From an archaeon (GTDB lineage: Archaea; Iainarchaeota; Iainarchaeia; Iainarchaeales; Iainarchaeaceae): 64,000 nucleotides of DNA. Of the stretch, positions 4,539 through 50,394 are shown piece by piece. Numbering within the stretch: the first letter of the stretch is position 1; every line of letters begins with the position of its first letter. A program made the translations under genes and the position numbers. Location: contig DATDWP010000028.1 of NCBI GenBank assembly GCA_035289625.1, positions 9,840 through 73,839 of the forward strand, read 5' to 3'. The notes below the pieces were generated by a model. That model had not been told where the DNA came from, searched no databases, and saw only the letters and a program-made list of their open reading frames with translations.

Positions 4539-5072
4539 ATGACAAAAATGCAAAAAGGCCAGATATTTTCAATCGATTTTTTGATAGCGGCAACACTCAC
4601 AGTTCTTGCAATTGGCCTTCTTCTCGGATATTATGAAACAGCAGCAACTTATGAAAAAGAAACCAGAATGAAAAATGAGTTCACTGCAATAGCCCTAAAT
4701 GCGAGTTCAATACTACTTGAAAAAAACCCCTGCATTCGAAGCGCTGGATTTAGTTCACAAGGATATAATGTTACTGGCTGCTCTGAGGAGACAAATTTTA
4801 ATAATTTCTCCAAAACGCAGCTCATGATACCTACTGGATTTAATTGCTACATCCACTGGGAAGGCCCTGACCCTTACAATGGGACACTGGGTGGCTGCAA
4901 TCAAACGGACCCCGGGACAACCCCATTAGACATTGTATCAATACAAAGGCCATTTGTCTCCCCACCACTCTCAACCGGCCTAACAAAGGCAGGTTATGAA
5001 AAATGCATTGAGGAAAATAATTGCCAGGATACTTACCTAGAATTCACACTCACGGTGAAAATATGGAAATGA
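4539..5072 (+). CDS. archaeal type IV pilin-like protein
   Basis: MTKMQKG|QIFSIDFLIAATLTVLAIGLLL. Confidence 0.55.
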   Translation: MTKMQKGQIFSIDFLIAATLTVLAIGLLLGYYETAATYEKETRMKNEFTAIALNASSILLEKNPCIRSAGFSSQGYNVTGCSEETNFNNFSKTQLMIPTGFNCYIHWEGPDPYNGTLGGCNQTDPGTTPLDIVSIQRPFVSPPLSTGLTKAGYEKCIEENNCQDTYLEFTLTVKIWK

Positions 5073-5353
5073 AAGGGATAATATTCACAATAGATGCAGG
5101 GCTTGCAATTGCAATAGTGATAATGACACTTGCAGCAATTGCCGCGCTCAGTTTCTCAGGATCTGGCGACGCTGCAACCAAAGGGCTTCTTTTCTACAAA
5201 TCAGCAGATGATGCTGTGCAAAAATATTTAGATAACAGTACTAGACCCGAGCCAGATGTTAGCGGAAACAATGTCCACTGCTATCAATTATACGGATATG
5301 CAGGAGATGGAACTGTCAACGAAAAGGTGGAGATATGCCAAAAAGCGGGATAA
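5063..5353 (+). CDS. archaeal type IV pilin-like protein
   Basis: MEMKG|IIFTIDAGLAIAIVIMTLAAIA; start moved to an internal Met of ORF 5021..5353. Confidence 0.5.
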   Translation: MEMKGIIFTIDAGLAIAIVIMTLAAIAALSFSGSGDAATKGLLFYKSADDAVQKYLDNSTRPEPDVSGNNVHCYQLYGYAGDGTVNEKVEICQKAG

Positions 5354-21401: not shown

Positions 21402-21558
21402 AATAAGAAGTGGGAATTATTATTAGTTGCCAAGACCTATTTCTACATAACCCTACCCTGGGCGTTACCCCTTTTGGAAAAAATTAAAAATCACTGCTCC
21501 GTTGGCTTGCATTTTCCCCACTTACAATATATATTCTTTCTTAGGAAAATTAGTTCAG

Positions 21559-23610
21559 ATGATCAAAAGCATTTATTTGGAAAACTGGAAAACCCATTTG
21601 AAGAGCCAATTTGAATTTGCCAAAGGCACGAATGTAATAGTTGGAATATCCGGGGCTGGAAAAACATCAATAACCGATGCAATATCCTACGCGCTATACG
21701 GAACATTCCCCTCACTTGCAGCCCGCAAAGTGAGCCTTGAAGAAACCATAATGTCAAAACCACTAAAACAACAAACAACAACAATAAGGCTAGAATTTGA
21801 TTATTCCAATAAGAGCTACCAAATTGAGAGAACTTCTAGAAGAAACGGCATGAGCGAAGCCACCTTGCGGGAAGGCACAAAAATAATTGCAGGCCCTAAA
21901 ACAACAGATGTCACAAAAAAAGTAACTGAAATACTTGAAGTGAATTATGATCTTTTCAGCAGGGCAATATATTCTGAGCAAAACCAAATAGATTTTTTCC
22001 TAAAACTCTCAGCTTCGCAAAGAAAAGAAAAAATCGATGAACTCTTAGGGCTTGATAGGTATGAGCGCGTGCGAACAAATGCAGTGACGCTTCTAAACCG
22101 CATGAAAAAAATCAACGATGACAAAAAGGCATTTTTGCAAGAGCAGCGCAAGAAAATAAACCCTGTGCAAATTAGTGAATATGAATGGAAATTGAAGCAG
22201 AAAAGAGAGGAAATAGCCCAAAAAGAAAAAGAAATGGAAAATGTACAAAAACTCTTTTTACAAAAAGAACTTGCCGCAAAAGAAATTGAAAAAAAAGAAA
22301 AAGAACACAAATCAATACGCGAACTTGAAATATCAAAAAAATCGAAACTTGAATCACTGCAAGCCCAAATAGAGAATGCGCAAAAAAAATCCCAAGGGCA
22401 TGATCTAACAAGCACGCAAGAGGTTTTACTTAAAATGGCAACGGAGCTTGAAAAACTACATCTTGCAAAAAAATCCCTCGAAGACCTTGCAAAGGCAGCA
22501 CAAAGAGAGGAAAATGGAATAGGTGAAAAACTCGCAGTGCAAAAAAACCTGCTTTTATCAAATGCAAAAAGAATGAAAGAAGCAAAAGACCTTGAAGGAA
22601 AATGCCCAATATGCTGCAGGCCGCTTAGCGAACATGACAAAAAAAAACTGGATGAGGAAATAAAAGGGGAAGAGGAGAGCATTTCCAGGCAAAGTATAAT
22701 ACTGCAAAAAGAACTAGAGCAACAGAGCAAAAAATCCAAAGAGATTATTTCCCAAATAGAAAAGAACACGCGGCAATGCGAAGAGCTACGGGAAAAAATA
22801 CAAACTCTAACACGGCTTTTAGAAATAGCACAGGAGATAAAAGATAAAAAATTCCAAAAAGAAAAACTCGAAGAGGAACTTGCAAAAATACACTCCTCAT
22901 TACTTGAAATGAAATTTGATGAAAAAGATGCAATAAAATCTAGGGAGCAATACTACGAGGCGCGAGAGAAGCACTCCAAAATAAAAATTGAAATAAACGC
23001 AACAAAAGAACTTATAGCAGAACTTGAAACTGCAGAGCGAAGAATAAAGGAAATGCAAAGCCAAATTGAAGAATTGGAAGCGCAAACAAAAATATCTGAA
23101 AAGAATATGGAAAAACTCTCAATGTTCACCTCCGCCCTAAAATCAACACAAGCAGAACTTCGCAATGTAATGATAGATACAATAAACCAGGCAATGGAGC
23201 AGCTGTGGCCCAAAATATACCCATACCAAGATATTCTATGCGTAAAACTTACAGTGGATGAGGGGAGCTATGAAATAATGGTAAGGCAGGTTAGCGGAGA
23301 GTGGATTAGAGTTGAAGGCATACTCTCGGGCGGGGAGAGGAGCAGCGCCGCGCTTACACTGCGAATTGCAATTTCACTAGTGCTCACGCAAAACCTTGGA
23401 TGGATAATACTAGATGAGCCCACACACAACCTTGATGTGAATTCGGTAAAGGAACTATCTGAAATGATGAGAAATCATTTGCCACAATTTATTGAACAAA
23501 TATTTATCATAACCCACGAAAAAGAACTAGAGTATGCAGCATCGGGAAAACTCTACACGCTGGAGCGCGAAAAAGAAAGAGACGGAGTTACGAAAATATC
23601 AATTGAGTAG
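21559..23610 (+). CDS. rad50: DNA double-strand break repair ATPase Rad50
   Basis: N-terminal MIKSIYLENWKTH...GISGAGKTSITDAISYALYG Walker A; central coiled coil with zinc hook GKCPICCRPL; C-terminal LSGGERS signature and ILDEPTHNLD Walker B. Confidence 0.85.
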   Translation: MIKSIYLENWKTHLKSQFEFAKGTNVIVGISGAGKTSITDAISYALYGTFPSLAARKVSLEETIMSKPLKQQTTTIRLEFDYSNKSYQIERTSRRNGMSEATLREGTKIIAGPKTTDVTKKVTEILEVNYDLFSRAIYSEQNQIDFFLKLSASQRKEKIDELLGLDRYERVRTNAVTLLNRMKKINDDKKAFLQEQRKKINPVQISEYEWKLKQKREEIAQKEKEMENVQKLFLQKELAAKEIEKKEKEHKSIRELEISKKSKLESLQAQIENAQKKSQGHDLTSTQEVLLKMATELEKLHLAKKSLEDLAKAAQREENGIGEKLAVQKNLLLSNAKRMKEAKDLEGKCPICCRPLSEHDKKKLDEEIKGEEESISRQSIILQKELEQQSKKSKEIISQIEKNTRQCEELREKIQTLTRLLEIAQEIKDKKFQKEKLEEELAKIHSSLLEMKFDEKDAIKSREQYYEAREKHSKIKIEINATKELIAELETAERRIKEMQSQIEELEAQTKISEKNMEKLSMFTSALKSTQAELRNVMIDTINQAMEQLWPKIYPYQDILCVKLTVDEGSYEIMVRQVSGEWIRVEGILSGGERSSAALTLRIAISLVLTQNLGWIILDEPTHNLDVNSVKELSEMMRNHLPQFIEQIFIITHEKELEYAASGKLYTLEREKERDGVTKISIE

Positions 23611-26349: not shown

Positions 26350-29300
26350 TTAGAGCAAATCCTCAATATCTTTTGAAGCAGCATCCTTTGTATCCTCAAA
26401 ATCAACTGCCGCCTTTTCAAGTGTTGTCTCATGGCGCGAATCTTGCGAGAGCTTTTTTCTCACCTTGAAAAAAACAGGAAAGTTCACAGCTTCCCCGACA
26501 ATTAAAGCTTCGCCTGTTCGCATTGTAGTTATCATATCAAGGCTACGCTTATCTAGCCCTTCACTAGTTTTTCCAATATGGTCAAGATCGTAAGGGTTTG
26601 TCACGCGCAATATTATATGAGTGTTGCACTGGGAAAGGGCTGTTGTTGAAAGATTTATCGGGCGCTGGGAAATTAGACAAATTGTTGCCCCGAACTTTCT
26701 TCCCTCGCGTGCAATTGTTTCCAAAATCCCCCTGCTAATTGCACCCTCTTTTGAAACCTTTTCCGGGATGAATTGGTGCGCCTCTTCAAGAACCATTGTA
26801 AAGGGCGCGATTTTTTTGTTCTTTCTTTCATAAAATAATTTTGACGAAAAATACGCAACAATTATCTGCTTTTTTTTCATATCAACAATATCGCTAAGAT
26901 CAACAATTGTAAGCTGCCCAGGCCTTATCAGATCATTAATGCTCGGGCTGTCTGTTTTTGAAAATAACCCAAGCTGCTCAAGTGACATAATCCAACCAAC
27001 AAGTGATTGCTTTGTTGCTTCCTTCATCTCTGTGTCTTTGAAAATTTCCGATTTTACCGCGCTAAAATCAAATGGCCCGAGCCCTTCTTTCATTTCCCTT
27101 TTCAATTTTTCCAAAACGCGCGCAAGATCCCTTTTTTGCGGGGATGTGAGCCCGGGAATAATCGAAGCCAGCATTCCAATTGAGAGCTTTGGGACCCCTA
27201 TCTGAATTTCCGGGGCCCTAATATATCTTGTTTTTGAAGAAAAATCAGCATAGCGAGAATCTGTCGGGGGCTCAGCAAATGAACGGTACTCTCCGTGCGC
27301 GTCCATTACAATTACTGCAATTCTACCATCCTCTTTTTTTCGCGCAAGGAGCTCTTCAAATAAAACAGAAGTTAGATAGCTGTTGTGTACAATAATTTCA
27401 TTTGCTACAAAGTTTGAATTTTCAACTGAAATATCATAAACATATTTATAGGCGGGTTTTATTTTCTGTATGTCTTCTACTGTGTCAAAAAATACATTCA
27501 TTTCACAAAATTTTTTAACTACACTTATCCGTGCTCTTGCATTGATCAAGTTTTGGCTGGATTCTTGTGCAATTTTTTTAAGTGAATCTGCAAAAGACAG
27601 CACCAATGAATTGTCAGCTTGGCCTCTTCCTTTTGAATGGCTATAGAGAAATTGTTTGTAACACCCATTAGTTTTGCACAATCCCTCGGTTGAATAACCC
27701 AAAGACTCGCAAAAAGCCTTAATTTCAGAAAGAGCCTTGTTTCTATCATCAGAACACACCCTTTCAAGGCCATTTAAGTTCCCACCCTTTATCTTTAACA
27801 CATTTTTTGCAAGAATGAAAGTCGTATTTTTAGGGGATGTTATTTCCCGAACAACCCTTCTTGCAGTGGTGCTTGACACCCCACTACCGGCAGCAATTTG
27901 ATTAAAATCAAGACCCTCAGAATATGCAGTTTTTAGTATTTCAAGAGCGTTCTGCTCAGATATAGGAATCAATGTTTCAAATACTGAATTTATTTTTACC
28001 AATGTATTTTCAATCTCTTCTGCCCGTTTTTCAAAAAGCCCAATAAGCACTCTCAAACTTTCCCTCGAAGGATTATCCTTACGGTAAAGGTAATTATTTA
28101 TGCCTGAAGACTCTTTTTGCGGCTGTGGCATTCTTAGCAATGAAAGTATTTCCGCAAGATGCGTATGTGTATGCGGTACAACATCAATATTCGTGTTGGG
28201 TTTTGTATGAACCCATTTATCCAATGCGGATTTTTTGTAATCTATCAGCAGGTTTAAATCGTGCAATTTGCGTATTTCCCCCGAGCCACTCACTAAAACT
28301 CTCTGGTATTCTTCCCCATCCACTATTTTGACACTGCGAAGCGTTATGACCCCTAACTTCGTAAATATTTCCTCTACCCCATCAGCTAGCCTTTTGCCGG
28401 CAACTGTTACATCTAACTCTGATTTATCCGGGTTTACATACCCATCACAATCGATAAAAGCCGAGATAAAATTTTTTAGGACATTTTTTTCACTTTGGAG
28501 AATTTCATCCGGAATGAATTTTGTCCAACTTGATTTGGTAAAACCATAGCCATTTAGGCATCGTGCGAGGACAATAGAATCTATTAATAATTCCCCTTTG
28601 GATTTGGCCTTTTTCACCCTGAGAGCAAATTTTTCTTCACAAATATCGGTAAAGTCTTTTTGTATTAGCTGATTTTCATTCGAGAAATTCATCCTCGATT
28701 TAAGCGTATTATGGCCTTCGGCAATAAGGTAGGCCATAAGTCTTGCAAAGCGTTCATCAACAGAATATAAAAGTTTGGTCGAAATCTTCGACTGTTTTTG
28801 GATAGCATATCCATCTTCCATCTTAACCCCCTTGAATTTTGCAGCTGAAGCAGTGAAATCTATTTGGGACTTTTTCCCAACCCAATCTACTCTTGGCAAA
28901 AATACATAATCATTTACCGAAATATTTTGTGCTTCTTTCCATTCAATTGCCCCGTTAAATACAGGCACCAAATGTTCTGGCGTCACCTCAATTTCTTTTC
29001 CAGTCCTTGTTTTTATCCGAATGGCATTTTCCGGAGCCTTTCTCCTATAATACCCAAGTATTTTCCCCGGAACTACCTTATTGACAGACTCTGAAAGCGC
29101 ATACGCCCTCAAATCAAAATCCTCTTCCCAAAACTCTACTCCATTTTCAACTTTCTTATTTTTTTCCAACACAGAATCTACAATCCCACCAATGGTTTTC
29201 TGTGCGCTATTCTCAAGCAATATTTTCGTGTCAGGTTTTACACATTTACCGGCACCAGACATCGCCAAAATCGCAAGGTGCTTTTGGAAAAGGCGTGAAA

Positions 29301-29799
29301 GATTTAATTTTACCGAAACATCATGATGCTCAATTTCGCCTAGCATTAGCCCTTTTTGCAAATCAAGGCCTAGGAATTTTTCCAAAGTTGCCCTTACTGC
29401 TACGCGCACTTTTGTTCCGGGGGAAGGCGGAAAAGTTGCGCGCCTCATTCTGCCTTCATTATATACACCCAAAGGACGGGTTTTTGCAACCAAATATTCC
29501 CACTCATGAGCAGGAAATTGCTCGAATAATTTTTTTCCGGAAGATTCAAATTCTTTAACACTTTCAAATCTTTCAAAATACCTATTTGTTTTGAGAACAT
29601 CGCCGACAAGGCAAACCATTGTCCCTTCACTATAATCAAGCTCAACAAATTGGCCGCGATGAATTGAACCAGAATATACAACAAAATCCAGTGAACTTGG
29701 GGATGGGCCTTCCATACTGCTAACAACAGTTCCGATTTCACCCTCTTTTAATTGCGGCAGATTTTTTAGCTGCTCATCTGAAATCTGCGTTTCATTCAC
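26350..29799 (-). CDS. herA: HerA-like helicase/ATPase with an intein in the P-loop
   Basis: Exteins (185 + 343 aa) rejoin as ...LAILAMSGAGK|SYLTSVLFEELL (Walker A GAGKS); C-extein has a Walker B/HerA-like core; intein begins with Cys after GAGK and ends VHN|S. Confidence 0.8.
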   Translation of the reverse strand: MNETQISDEQLKNLPQLKEGEIGTVVSSMEGPSPSSLDFVVYSGSIHRGQFVELDYSEGTMVCLVGDVLKTNRYFERFESVKEFESSGKKLFEQFPAHEWEYLVAKTRPLGVYNEGRMRRATFPPSPGTKVRVAVRATLEKFLGLDLQKGLMLGEIEHHDVSVKLNLSRLFQKHLAILAMSGAGKCVKPDTKILLENSAQKTIGGIVDSVLEKNKKVENGVEFWEEDFDLRAYALSESVNKVVPGKILGYYRRKAPENAIRIKTRTGKEIEVTPEHLVPVFNGAIEWKEAQNISVNDYVFLPRVDWVGKKSQIDFTASAAKFKGVKMEDGYAIQKQSKISTKLLYSVDERFARLMAYLIAEGHNTLKSRMNFSNENQLIQKDFTDICEEKFALRVKKAKSKGELLIDSIVLARCLNGYGFTKSSWTKFIPDEILQSEKNVLKNFISAFIDCDGYVNPDKSELDVTVAGKRLADGVEEIFTKLGVITLRSVKIVDGEEYQRVLVSGSGEIRKLHDLNLLIDYKKSALDKWVHTKPNTNIDVVPHTHTHLAEILSLLRMPQPQKESSGINNYLYRKDNPSRESLRVLIGLFEKRAEEIENTLVKINSVFETLIPISEQNALEILKTAYSEGLDFNQIAAGSGVSSTTARRVVREITSPKNTTFILAKNVLKIKGGNLNGLERVCSDDRNKALSEIKAFCESLGYSTEGLCKTNGCYKQFLYSHSKGRGQADNSLVLSFADSLKKIAQESSQNLINARARISVVKKFCEMNVFFDTVEDIQKIKPAYKYVYDISVENSNFVANEIIVHNSYLTSVLFEELLARKKEDGRIAVIVMDAHGEYRSFAEPPTDSRYADFSSKTRYIRAPEIQIGVPKLSIGMLASIIPGLTSPQKRDLARVLEKLKREMKEGLGPFDFSAVKSEIFKDTEMKEATKQSLVGWIMSLEQLGLFSKTDSPSINDLIRPGQLTIVDLSDIVDMKKKQIIVAYFSSKLFYERKNKKIAPFTMVLEEAHQFIPEKVSKEGAISRGILETIAREGRKFGATICLISQRPINLSTTALSQCNTHIILRVTNPYDLDHIGKTSEGLDKRSLDMITTMRTGEALIVGEAVNFPVFFKVRKKLSQDSRHETTLEKAAVDFEDTKDAASKDIEDLL
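27382..29244 (-). mobile_element. intein (621 aa) with LAGLIDADG homing-endonuclease domain inside herA
   Basis: Block A Cys1 (GAGK|CVKPDTKILL); LAGLIDADG-like motifs LMAYLIAEGHN and ISAFIDCDGYV; C-terminal block EIIVHN followed by Ser+1. Confidence 0.75.
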
Positions 29800-29914: not shown

Positions 29915-30385
29915 TTATCTCCTCCTTATAGCAATCCTGGATAAAATTTTCCTTTTTTTCTTTTTAGGTTTTTTAACTCTGTGGTTTATTTCTCTCAAAG
30001 CACGCTTTTTTTTCAAATATTCTCCAATAAAACCATCAGTTGTCACAGAACCCGCATAGCAATGAACATAAATTTTTTTACCTGCAGGAAGAGAGCGAAT
30101 TATCTCAAAAAATTTTAAAAGATCATTTTCTTTAACTGGCGACCCGAGACGCCCAAAACCTACGGCGCCACCAAAATCATAAACTCGCATCCCGTATTTT
30201 GGTGCTACAGCATGATCGACTATCCCTGTAGTACGTCTTCCAGCCATATATCCTATCAAAGAAACTATTGCTACGACACCTTTCTCTTTTAGAAATGCAT
30301 ATTTTGCATTTGTATTTGCAACTCCGCCGGCAAGGACAAAACGATCTATTTCTTTAAACAGGTTTGGCTCCTCCAATTGCACCAT
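29915..30385 (-). CDS. dual-specificity-phosphatase-like protein with atypical P-loop
   Basis: VHCYAGSVTT resembles HCxAGxxR(S/T) but the catalytic Arg is replaced by Thr; Lys-rich tail. Confidence 0.4.
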   Translation of the reverse strand: MVQLEEPNLFKEIDRFVLAGGVANTNAKYAFLKEKGVVAIVSLIGYMAGRRTTGIVDHAVAPKYGMRVYDFGGAVGFGRLGSPVKENDLLKFFEIIRSLPAGKKIYVHCYAGSVTTDGFIGEYLKKKRALREINHRVKKPKKKKRKILSRIAIRRR

Positions 30386-30387
30386 CT

Positions 30388-30801
30388 TCACACAACCCTT
30401 ACTTTTGCCTCTTTCACTCTTTTCCACTCCTTATCGCTCGTGACTGCCGTCGCATCGTTTTCGATAGCTGTTTGTAGTATTATGGCATCAGCCATTGAGA
30501 GATTGAGGTCTGTATGCCTGCTTTTCAAAAATGCCGCTTTCTTTGCTATTTTGAGGGTCGGCTCAATAAAACTCCCAATTTTCTCGAAAAATACCACTGA
30601 TTTTACGGCTGACCTTATATTCTTCCTCTTCAAGGTTGTTATAAGCTCAAAAGCCGAGAGCGTGCTTGCAAGGCAATTAATTTCCTTTTTGCTGCCCTTT
30701 TCAAGTAGGTAACCAACCTTTTTGCTGCCCTTTTCTGCGATAGCGAATTTTACCAGTGCGGAGCTGTCAAAAACCAAATCTTTTTTATCTTTTTTTCTCA
30801 T
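30388..30801 (-). CDS. vapC: PIN-domain toxin (VapC-like)
   Basis: LVFDSSALV N-terminal PIN motif; acidic residues spaced as in PIN; 137 aa; overlaps the upstream small gene. Confidence 0.7.
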   Translation of the reverse strand: MRKKDKKDLVFDSSALVKFAIAEKGSKKVGYLLEKGSKKEINCLASTLSAFELITTLKRKNIRSAVKSVVFFEKIGSFIEPTLKIAKKAAFLKSRHTDLNLSMADAIILQTAIENDATAVTSDKEWKRVKEAKVRVV

Positions 30802-31066: not shown

Positions 31067-32158
31067 TCAAAACGGCCTATTATCCCTTCGCATCCTCATT
31101 TTCACAGACGCCCCCAATTTATCCATAATTTTATTGTACACAATATCGATTTCGTTGTTATTTAGCTTTGCATGAAAATCGGCTTCAATTAGAACCGAAG
31201 GGTATGCGTACTCGCGATGCAAAGAGCTAAGGGCCGTTGCAACACTTGCAATCTCATCTGCTTTTTCAAAAAGCTCTGATTTATTATGGCAAATAAATTC
31301 GACACGAAGCGGCCTATCAAGAGCCGAGGGCTTTACATACAGCCCATAAATGCCCTCTGCCCATTGTGGATTAAAATCAACTAGCACGGGATGCTGTCGG
31401 ATATTTTTTGTATAAGTAAAAGCGCAACTGCGCTCGCCAACTTGCAGGAAATATTCCAAAAGAGAAGAATCAAAAATCCCATCAAGCTCTTCTTTTCTAA
31501 CACTGCCCATCTTTTCTACTACATTGTCTTGCAAAATCGACCGGAAGCGCGAACCTCTACTATCCTCAACAGTTGCAATAAGGGTAGTGTTGTGCTTTTG
31601 CGCCAAAGCATAGAGAGATTCAAACTCACTTATAATCCCGTGATAATTATCGGTTAGTTCGGATTCTTTTCTTGGCTTGTCCTGGTATTGTGGAACAATG
31701 CTCCCGTCAATAAAAAGATATTTCGGAGAGTACTCTTCAATTATTTTTTTTGAAACGCCAACTTCCTCTTTTAACCTCATAAGGCTCTTGCTCTGCTCGG
31801 CTTCATCATCCTCAAGTGATGCTCCTGCAAGATGGGGCTGCGGGAAATTAAAATAACCCGGATGGTATTTTGCGAGGACCACTTTCCCATCAGAATATTC
31901 AAACAAAACCCCCATTGCTCTAATCAGCACAAGATCAATTGTAGCAAGCCGCTTTGCAACAAAACCCGAATCAACCCCTGCAACAAGCCCATTTGGGATC
32001 CACTTTGAAATTGGAAATACAAGCTTTTTTTCAGCAAGTTCTGAAGAGGAAAAATCTAAATATTTTAGCGGCAAGAGGCGCTGCACCACAAATTTTCTGC
32101 GATTCTCCCCATTTGCTATGACATCAACAGTGTGGTCAATTATTGAAGAGATATTCAT
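31067..32158 (-). CDS. nurA: NurA-like nuclease
   Basis: N-terminal LVAGVDSGF motif resembling the NurA catalytic Asp motif; 363 aa; herA on the same strand. Confidence 0.6.
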   Translation of the reverse strand: MNISSIIDHTVDVIANGENRRKFVVQRLLPLKYLDFSSSELAEKKLVFPISKWIPNGLVAGVDSGFVAKRLATIDLVLIRAMGVLFEYSDGKVVLAKYHPGYFNFPQPHLAGASLEDDEAEQSKSLMRLKEEVGVSKKIIEEYSPKYLFIDGSIVPQYQDKPRKESELTDNYHGIISEFESLYALAQKHNTTLIATVEDSRGSRFRSILQDNVVEKMGSVRKEELDGIFDSSLLEYFLQVGERSCAFTYTKNIRQHPVLVDFNPQWAEGIYGLYVKPSALDRPLRVEFICHNKSELFEKADEIASVATALSSLHREYAYPSVLIEADFHAKLNNNEIDIVYNKIMDKLGASVKMRMRRDNRPF

Positions 32159-48864: not shown

Positions 48865-48963
48865 GCGGGCGTAGTATAGCCTGGTTAGTACTCGGCCTTG
48901 CCAAGAATTTTCCAAAAAATTTGCAACTAGGCCGTGGGTCGGGTTCAAATCCCGACGCCCGCA
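48865..48963 (+). tRNA. tRNA-Gly(GCC) with ~25-nt canonical intron
   Basis: GCGGGCG acceptor, D-arm GTAT/AGCCTGGTTA/GTAC, anticodon stem CGGCC with loop TTGCCA|intron|A and 3' strand GGCCG, T-arm TCGGG/TTCAAAT/CCCGA, acceptor CGCCCGC. Confidence 0.7.
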
Positions 48964-50241: not shown

Positions 50242-50394
50242 GCGGCCGTGGTGTAGTGGTTAGCTTTAAAGGGGAACAAAGAGTTAATCCAACTAAGGCC
50301 CATAAAGCACTAGAGCCTTCCATAAACTTTTCCATTTAAAATTTGTGGGGTTCGGGGTCAGCTCTTAGCCGGGGTTCGAATCCCCGCGGCCGCA
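50242..50394 (+). tRNA. tRNA-Gly(TCC) with two introns (D-arm non-canonical ~44 nt and canonical 37/38 ~37 nt)
   Basis: Hand fold: exon1 GCGGCCGTGGTGTAGTGGTTAGC; exon2 ACTAGAGCCTTCCA (anticodon stem AGAGC, loop CTTCCA); exon3 AGCTCTTAGCCGGGGTTCGAATCCCCGCGGCCGCA; D-stem GTGT/GCAC only pairs after removing the first insert. Confidence 0.55.

Follow-up and report, generated by a model that had tools for sequence, protein, structure and literature searches.

Introduction

Inteins that interrupt P-loops are well known from ATPases of replication and repair, with MCM, DnaB, RFC, RadA, and the V-ATPase as hosts. Those of MCM, DnaB, RFC, and V-ATPase subunit A are textbook cases (PMC4760082). In the TliVMA intein (Thermococcus litoralis V-ATPase subunit A, VMA-b site), a HINT splicing domain is combined with a homing endonuclease (HEN) together with an accessory domain (ACD), and endonuclease activity has been demonstrated; the ACDs of TliVMA and of the related PhoVMA intein are small, diverse, and modulate DNA cleavage, and the PhoVMA endonuclease is inactive (PMC8966425). 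Here, we describe a 621-residue insert in the P-loop of the DNA-end-resection ATPase and double-strand-break repair helicase HerA, encoded on a 64-kb stretch of contig DATDWP010000028.1 (hereafter, the window) from a DPANN archaeon that is Diapherotrites/Iainarchaeota-like. The insert is very probably a canonical class-1 intein with a nested LAGLIDADG endonuclease and a large accessory domain, which would both splice and home.

Among inteins of solved structure, the TliVMA intein (7QSS) is the best match to the insert (phmmer, 6e-23; Foldseek, 3e-19), followed by PI-TkoII, PhoVMA, PI-PfuI, PI-SceI, and I-DmoI. As in TliVMA, insertion is in Walker A after GK, the parts follow in the order HINT-N, linker, LAGLIDADG endonuclease, accessory domain, and HINT-C, and the accessory regions align over their first ∼55 residues (NTNIDVVP...NYL...). 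The two differ in host (V-ATPase subunit A and HerA, respectively) and in length (429 residues versus 621), their identity is only 18%–25%, and the accessory domain of ∼50 residues in TliVMA compares with ∼240 residues in the HerA intein. The latter, four to five times the size of those in solved relatives, occupies the position of the ACD of TliVMA and PhoVMA (PMC8966425), from which it differs in size and architecture.

Results

Splice Junctions and Splicing Domain

The Walker A motif of the herA precursor is split as GAGK(185)/C186...HN(806)/S807, with coordinates that are exact to the base (Table 1). The N-terminal junction reads AILAMSGAGK/CVKPDTKILL and the C-terminal junction NEIIVHN/SYLTSVLFEELL; in full, the two borders are ...KHLAILAMSGAGK/CVKPDTKILL...NEIIVHN/SYLTSVLFEELL. 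Residue numbering rests on a GTG start codon at 29799, and no other start codon lies upstream of the conserved N terminus. An earlier note on this DNA had placed a 621-residue insert exactly in Walker A, beginning with Cys and ending with His-Asn before a Ser, and had proposed that its removal restores a canonical P-loop. Both statements hold. Removal of residues 186–806 leaves a 528-residue protein with MSGAGKSYLTSV across the junction, and the HerA/DUF87 Pfam match, which falls into two split stretches in the presence of the insert (2e-25), becomes continuous (7e-33). On the spliced protein, PF01935 covers positions 153–366, with the Walker A GAGKS restored and Walker B present as VLEEAHQF. 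The intein accounts for the annotation of herA at twice its normal length, and the predicted mature protein is the 528-residue product.

The identity of the insert as an intein, also claimed in the earlier note, is borne out by curated models, by motif residues, and by the predicted fold. Pfam Intein_splicing scores 76 bits (cut-off 35.8), TIGR01445 (intein N-terminal region; intein residues 1–94) 53.5 bits (cut-off 24.5), and TIGR01443 (intein C-terminal region) 21.8 bits (cut-off 15.6), values that for a sequence match are far beyond chance, and the NCBIfam model of a V-ATPase with intein spans the junction (protein residues 176–602). The canonical class-1 splicing residues are all present. 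Block B (EVTPEHLVPV; intein 86–95, nucleotides 28960–28989) contains the TxxH motif as TPEH, and blocks F and G run to His-Asn followed by the nucleophile (KYVYDISVENSNFVANEIIVHN/S807). The +1 nucleophile, Ser807, doubles as the Walker A Ser. An AlphaFold2 model of the intein, predicted from a 4-sequence alignment, has a mean predicted local distance difference test (pLDDT) score of 75.6, and in Foldseek the HINT fold of this predicted structure is matched to 7QSS, 2CW7, 1DQ3, 1VDE, and 6RPQ.

Table 1. Features of the herA locus, in window coordinates
Feature	Position	Strand	Basis and remarks
herA precursor gene, complete	26350..29799	-	1149 codons + stop; N-extein, intein, C-extein; open reading frame list, Pfam, NCBIfam
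N-extein, residues 1-185	29245..29799	-	N-domain weakly resembling a HAS-barrel, with Walker A ...MSGAGK at its end; alignable to intein-free orthologues as far as GAGK
Intein, 621 residues, protein residues 186-806	27382..29244	-	Pfam, NCBIfam, fold match; absent from syntenic allele L011
HINT N-part, intein 1-120	28885..29244	-	block A with Cys1, block B EVTPEHLVPV; TIGR01445, beta-strand model
Linker, intein 121-160	28765..28884	-	poorly conserved; pLDDT <50 at residues 131-159
LAGLIDADG endonuclease, intein 161-344	28213..28764	-	Pfam LAGLIDADG_3; Foldseek
Accessory domain, intein 345-582	27499..28212	-	~240 residues, all alpha-helical, between endonuclease and HINT C-part
Three putative Cro/XRE-like helix-turn-helix-like units in accessory domain	about 28027-28164, 27796-27912, 27580-27735	-	units framed by two long helices
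HINT C-part, intein 583-621	27382..27498	-	block F KYVYDISVENSNFVAN, block G EIIVHN; TIGR01443
C-extein, residues 807-1149	26350..27381	-	begins with Walker A Ser807; holds Walker B ...VLEEAHQF; Pfam DUF87 at 807-987
NurA nuclease gene	31067..32158	-	functional partner of HerA; upstream, same strand; Pfam NurA 1.1e-10
Rad50-like ATPase gene	21502..23610	+	double-strand-break repair context; Pfam AAA_23, SMC_N, Rad50 zinc hook, SbcC Walker B

Intein-Free Orthologues and Other Intein Sites

A search with the spliced HerA sequence gave more than 3000 relatives, of which the best 120 were analyzed. These are 58%–78% identical to the spliced protein, and most belong to metagenome-assembled genomes of 'Candidatus Diapherotrites' and other DPANN archaea. 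The P-loop insert occurs in 0 of these 120; 113 are devoid of any insert (460–537 residues), and the other 7 hold a different intein elsewhere. In the alignment, GAGKSYL is uninterrupted in P0001, P0003, P0009, P0069, and others. The locus of the closest intein-free orthologue (L011; 78% identical) has contiguous P-loop DNA (GGCAAG/AGCTAT) and the gene order of the window: NurA, PIN, phosphatase, HerA, VTT/DedA, and a 501-residue open reading frame.

These data dispose of the reading of the insert as a native HerA domain, for which the earlier note had proposed this very comparison with intein-free orthologues, or as an assembly or chimera artefact. The continuous reading frame through the insert is all that speaks for either. 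Against them stand the contiguous P-loop of orthologues at 78% identity in an identical gene order, the recurrence of the architecture in more than 10 independent assemblies, and the curated intein models that the insert passes. Both readings are ruled out by the alignments of orthologues and by the empty site of the syntenic L011, and the probability left to the pair is negligible. The anatomy of the insert, its catalytic residues, its homology, its absence from orthologues, and its distribution are established here.

Other positions in HerA are also occupied by inteins. A LAGLIDADG intein directly behind Walker B (EEAHQF/C...GN/CPE) is found in seven orthologues (P0015, P0016, P0085, P0088, P0097, P0106, and P0115) and is 336–339 residues long in the two that were measured. 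This site is empty in the window (26750–26800 region, VLEEAHQF/IPEK, residues ∼1004–1015), where it carries Ile; intein-free relatives have Ala or Cys. P0131 (1628 residues) contains two inteins, one in the P-loop and one at a third site, LSTTVLSQ/C...THN/CNTHIILR. Together, these alleles place inteins at no fewer than three sites of DPANN HerA: Walker A, Walker B, and the LSQ/CNTH motif.

Homing Endonuclease Domain

The two LAGLIDADG-like blocks that the earlier note had picked out were both located, and each holds its acidic residue. Motif 1, LMAYLIAEGHN, occupies intein residues 169–179 (nucleotides 28708–28740) and has Glu; motif 2, ISAFIDCDGYV, occupies residues 260–270 (nucleotides 28435–28467) and has Asp. 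Pfam LAGLIDADG_3 scores 31.2 bits on the insert (cut-off 22.5). In the predicted model, the domain adopts an alpha-beta-beta-alpha-beta-beta-alpha pseudo-dimer fold between blocks B and F, and Foldseek matches it to I-DmoI, I-Tsp061I, and WhiA over ∼180–200 columns with a root-mean-square deviation of ∼4 Å, and also to PI-PfuI.

EGHN and DCDG are unchanged in the 11–12 relatives that were aligned; the second motif is degenerate in two very distant members, P0134 and P0139. Mean pairwise identity is 55% in the HINT C-part, 48% in the endonuclease, 42% in the HINT N-part, 37% in the accessory domain, and 28% in the linker. Conservation of the endonuclease is thus no lower than that of the N-terminal splicing domain, which selection for an intact frame alone would not produce and which argues for selection on the endonuclease itself.

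Fusion of the window's own flanks gives the reconstructed intein-less target, GCGATTTTGGCGATGTCTGGTGCCGGTAAA/AGCTATCTAACTTCTGTTTTATTTGAAGAG. The +1 Ser codon (window 27379–27381) is AGC or AGT in 10 of 10 intein-bearing alleles (window, L001–L009) and in the empty L011, and is never TCN. The junction DNA, AAR/AGY, is the most conserved portion of this putative homing site.

Distribution and History of the Intein Family

A homologous intein is present at the same site in about 25 DPANN genes for HerA or HerA-like ATPases, with 28%–71% identity where measured. When GTDB was scanned with each species represented by a single genome, nine DPANN genomes proved to carry a full-length relative (603–683 residues, 31%–71% identical). 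They are annotated as Diapherotrites, Micrarchaeota, Nanoarchaeota, or 'archaeon', and in all nine the site is SG[AS]GK/C...HN/S of a HerA or HerA-like ATPase. Further carriers are L012, P0122, and about 13 more database representatives. Cys1, the block B His, and HN/S are, like the endonuclease motifs, common to the 11–12 aligned relatives; VYD, NF, and HN of the C-terminal blocks are invariant, as is the block B His, and TxxH is kept in most (it is SFNH in L007).

In a neighbor-joining tree of the exteins, intein carriers are scattered among intein-free alleles, and P0001, which has no intein, falls within the small clade of the intein-bearing window, L001, L003, and P0129. Intein and extein identity rise together (r = 0.83), and the intein is usually the more diverged of the two, a pattern that long vertical residence with losses fits as well as recent homing does. 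GC content differs only slightly between intein (0.375) and exteins (0.419), which gives no sign of recent arrival. Such a record fits an element of long residence that related lineages have gained and lost in the usual way, and not one that has lately come from afar.

The correlation and the slight compositional difference weigh against the reading of the insert as an intein that splices and homes, as do three further points and the negative results on the accessory domain given below. The block F histidine is replaced by Ser in the window allele (ENSNF; ENHNF in some relatives). Expression of the C-extein forces the intein reading frame to stay intact, so that an intact frame is no proof of an active endonuclease. 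Splicing and cleavage are inferred, as is the role of the accessory domain.

Part of this is what would be expected if the intein spliced and its endonuclease no longer drove homing, the element then being a vertically inherited passenger that only precise deletion could remove from an essential motif, with the HEN and accessory domain kept for folding, splicing, or another role. The correlated divergence and the lack of strong compositional contrast with the host gene are consistent with such a passenger, and so is the inactivity of the related PhoVMA endonuclease (PMC8966425). However, both catalytic acidic residues are invariant in relatives down to 28%–31% identity, whereas PhoVMA has lost its own. 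The relative conservation of the HEN described above and the patchy presence of the intein even in the closest clade, where P0001 lacks it, also count against a passenger, which we consider possible but unlikely. The reading preferred here remains an intein that would still home.

Several observations concern individual members of the family. In the window, the DNA of the HINT C-part is markedly GC-poor (0.265, with 0.205 at third codon positions; whole intein, 0.375; window, 0.392). A second, longer HerA-like ATPase family carries the same type of P-loop intein (L009, P0128, P0130, P0132, P0134, and P0137); its members are ∼1200–1340 residues long including the intein, with a C-terminal extension of ∼200 residues, L009 comes from a Nanoarchaeota genome, and against the window both intein and extein identity are 35%. 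P0122 (J7L85_02540), a HerA fragment with the same intein, is filed under 'candidate division WOR-3 bacterium'; because its extein is of the kind usual in the DPANN archaeal HerA clade, the fragment is probably a binning contaminant. P0121, a truncated database protein, had been a candidate for a split or degenerate intein, which was ruled out: its break is a scaffold gap within the intein, where L012 has a run of N (∼5040–5140), and the same run also yields a separate upstream gene call of 374 residues.

Accessory Domain

Some 40% of the insert belongs neither to the splicing domain nor to the endonuclease, a portion on which the earlier note did not remark. An AlphaFold2 model of the accessory domain alone has a pLDDT of 85 and a predicted template modeling score of 0.76, and comprises 12 helices, two of them 30–36 residues long. 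Matches to helix-turn-helix (HTH) families come from relatives. At unit 2, HTH_3 scores 26.3 and 28.0 bits in L004 and L007 (cut-off 23); unit 3 is matched in relatives by HTH_31 (26 bits, cut-off 27) and HTH_26, unit 1 of P0126 weakly by HTH_3 (18.9 bits), and HTH_11 is also found among units other than unit 2. At accessory positions 2–74, the sequence of MCM inteins is a typical Cro/XRE HTH (...STYQHYERGDRNPS...). Foldseek lists are dominated by local matches to HTH proteins of XRE type (SinR, DdrO, HigA, HipB, and phage CI/XRE), with probabilities of 0.7–0.9 and E values above 0.04.

The negative results are three. The window's own accessory sequence has no Pfam match, the Foldseek search with the whole domain returned nothing significant, and hhalign between the three putative units detected no significant repeat (E values of 0.017 to 0.74). 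Because the repeat test is not significant, the count of three HTH units stays an interpretation. With moderate confidence, we regard the domain as an expanded one, in which three degenerate Cro/XRE-like HTH units are framed by long helices and probably add DNA contacts.

An exhaustive HMMER profile search of 1.84 billion representative proteins gave 33 matches with E values below 1e-3, 16 of them below 1e-10. Matches to the whole domain all lie within HerA or HerA-like proteins of 1100–1630 residues that have an intein at GK/C, and the domain as a whole appears from these searches to be confined to this intein family. In an intein-only search of 5.8 billion proteins, five matches were returned, and one with the accessory-domain profile in the same tool; this search, which uses a word index, under-reports the family, having missed P0121 and P0122 with the accessory-domain profile.

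A bolder interpretation takes the domain for a previously undescribed triple-HTH DNA-recognition module, specific as a whole to DPANN HerA P-loop inteins, that would greatly lengthen or re-target the endonuclease site, or else tether the unspliced precursor to DNA and so couple HerA activation by splicing to DNA binding. We hold this interpretation to be distinctly unlikely. If it were true, the element would be a homing endonuclease scaffold that is modular and can be re-targeted, or else a splicing switch that senses DNA, and it would sit in HerA-NurA end resection, the machinery on which homing itself depends.

An extra HTH-like insert of ∼60 residues (for example, FSKIINMTPQKLQYLLSHSGVPLDYLKLICNKLGVDF) is present at the linker position in L005, L006, L007, L009, P0122, and P0127. 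It maps to intein residues 121–160 of the window (nucleotides 28765–28884), and a similar insert occurs in the MCM intein P0124.

Host Protein and Genomic Context

The best NCBIfam matches of the exteins are helicase_HerA and HerA_Thermprot (148 and 146 bits); the equivalog cut-offs of these HerA models (970 and 800 bits) are far from reached by the spliced protein. The match of the HAS-barrel model PF09378 to the N-domain is weak (E value 0.025; 15 bits against a cut-off of 25.2). Since HerA models are the top hits, yet far below equivalog level, the host protein is classed by sequence as a divergent DPANN member of the HerA family.

The linkage of nurA and herA is kept in loci L011 and L012 as well. 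Between the two genes in the window lie genes for a PIN-domain protein and for a DSP/PTP-like phosphatase (29915–30801, minus strand). The same two genes are found in the intein-free L011 (1438–2591), where a MazE-like antitoxin gene also precedes PIN. They look like a toxin-antitoxin-like pair inside a repair operon.

The earlier note had further taken the intein and intron-containing tRNAs to point to a genome rich in selfish elements. The part concerning tRNAs stands in so far as ARAGORN with intron search gives two candidates on the plus strand, tRNA-Gly(GCC) at 48865–48963 with a 25-nucleotide intron and tRNA-Leu(TAA) at 50242–50394 with a 62-nucleotide intron in an unusual position. Both were missed by default ARAGORN and by Rfam at the gathering threshold, which report two tRNAs in the window, both intron-less. 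The intein is the only one in the 64 kb: a family hidden Markov model run over all six frames found no other. Because tRNA introns are ordinary in archaea, the remark on selfish elements is weak at best.

Discussion

The position of the insert suggests how the element may act on its host. Translation would give a precursor of 1149 residues whose ATP-binding loop is physically interrupted and which would have no ATPase activity. Since the role of GxxxxGK[ST] is taken to be universal, normal ATP binding and hydrolysis would not be expected of the precursor; from the site of insertion, we infer, as did the earlier note, that ATPase activity depends on splicing. Cys1 would form a thioester with Lys185, which would then be attacked by Ser807, the Walker A Ser/Thr. 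Cyclization of Asn806, assisted by His805, would release the intein, and an O-to-N shift would yield the 528-residue HerA with GAGKSYL restored, able to work with the NurA encoded at the adjacent locus. The endonuclease of the free intein would recognize and cut the uninterrupted P-loop coding sequence of an intein-less herA, and recombinational repair of the cut allele would copy the intein in. Homing of this kind would explain the patchy distribution in close relatives. The putative HTH units of the accessory domain most likely add DNA contacts flanking the core target, as suggested by their Cro/XRE-like character and by the position that the small DNA-contacting domain takes in solved relatives.

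Dependence of a repair ATPase on splicing could also have been put to use by the host. The intein might then be a co-opted conditional switch, in which splicing, and hence HerA ATPase activity and end resection, awaits a signal such as a redox change, a shift in temperature, damage to DNA, or contact of the accessory domain with DNA. Inteins in the P-loops or ATPase domains of RadA and DnaB reportedly splice conditionally, and a P-loop position in a repair ATPase belongs to this class of sites. The intein holds several cysteines besides Cys1, and the large DNA-binding-like accessory domain is kept in this family only. However, no sequence feature demonstrates regulation, no Cys is found at +1 or in the nearby N-extein for the known disulfide traps, and most orthologues, the closest included, function without any intein, so that the host can do without a switch of this kind. 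We judge a switch to be very unlikely.

With this intein, HerA, the archaeal DNA-end-resection motor, joins the list of P-loop intein hosts, and the several occupied sites make DPANN HerA an intein hot spot. The accessory domains form a natural series, from ∼50 residues in TliVMA through one HTH-like unit in MCM-a to three here and an optional fourth in some relatives, which would lend itself to a test of the published proposal that such domains adjust target recognition and ease the passage of inteins from one P-loop site to another. For engineering, the element offers a P-loop intein that comes from a mesophile, has Ser at +1, and probably recognizes a long site. Current concepts are unchanged by the finding.

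A limited literature search found no published HerA intein. HerA is absent from the main text of a large intein census (PMC4760082), a statement that does not cover the supplementary tables, where a prior listing is possible.

Apart from TliVMA, the closest parallels are the archaeal MCM-a P-loop inteins (for example, of haloarchaeal MCM; PMC4760082, PMC10643990), which likewise occupy the P-loop of a hexameric DNA-dependent ATPase. The first accessory unit is common to both (NTNVDVVP...STYQHYERGDRNPS; profile E value about 1e-7 to 1e-6). In contrast to the HerA intein, those of MCM-a match only accessory positions 2–74 and are without the remaining ∼165 residues, and their host is an AAA+ ATPase rather than a member of the FtsK/HerA group. 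PI-TkoII (2CW7), PI-PfuI (1DQ3), and PI-SceI (1LWS) also combine HINT and LAGLIDADG parts with additional domains and give significant fold matches. Their extra domains (domain IV, stirrup, and DRR) contact DNA; their accessory folds and/or positions differ from those of the HerA intein, and none is a multi-HTH helical array. The Walker-B-site inteins share the host gene family with the window intein and likewise contain a LAGLIDADG endonuclease, but they are without a large accessory domain, occupy a different site, and do not align with it in the orthologue alignment. Set beside these systems, the P-loop intein of HerA is a genuine selfish element of a rather ordinary kind; what appears to be new is HerA as the host protein, and its only distinctive feature is the unusually large accessory domain.

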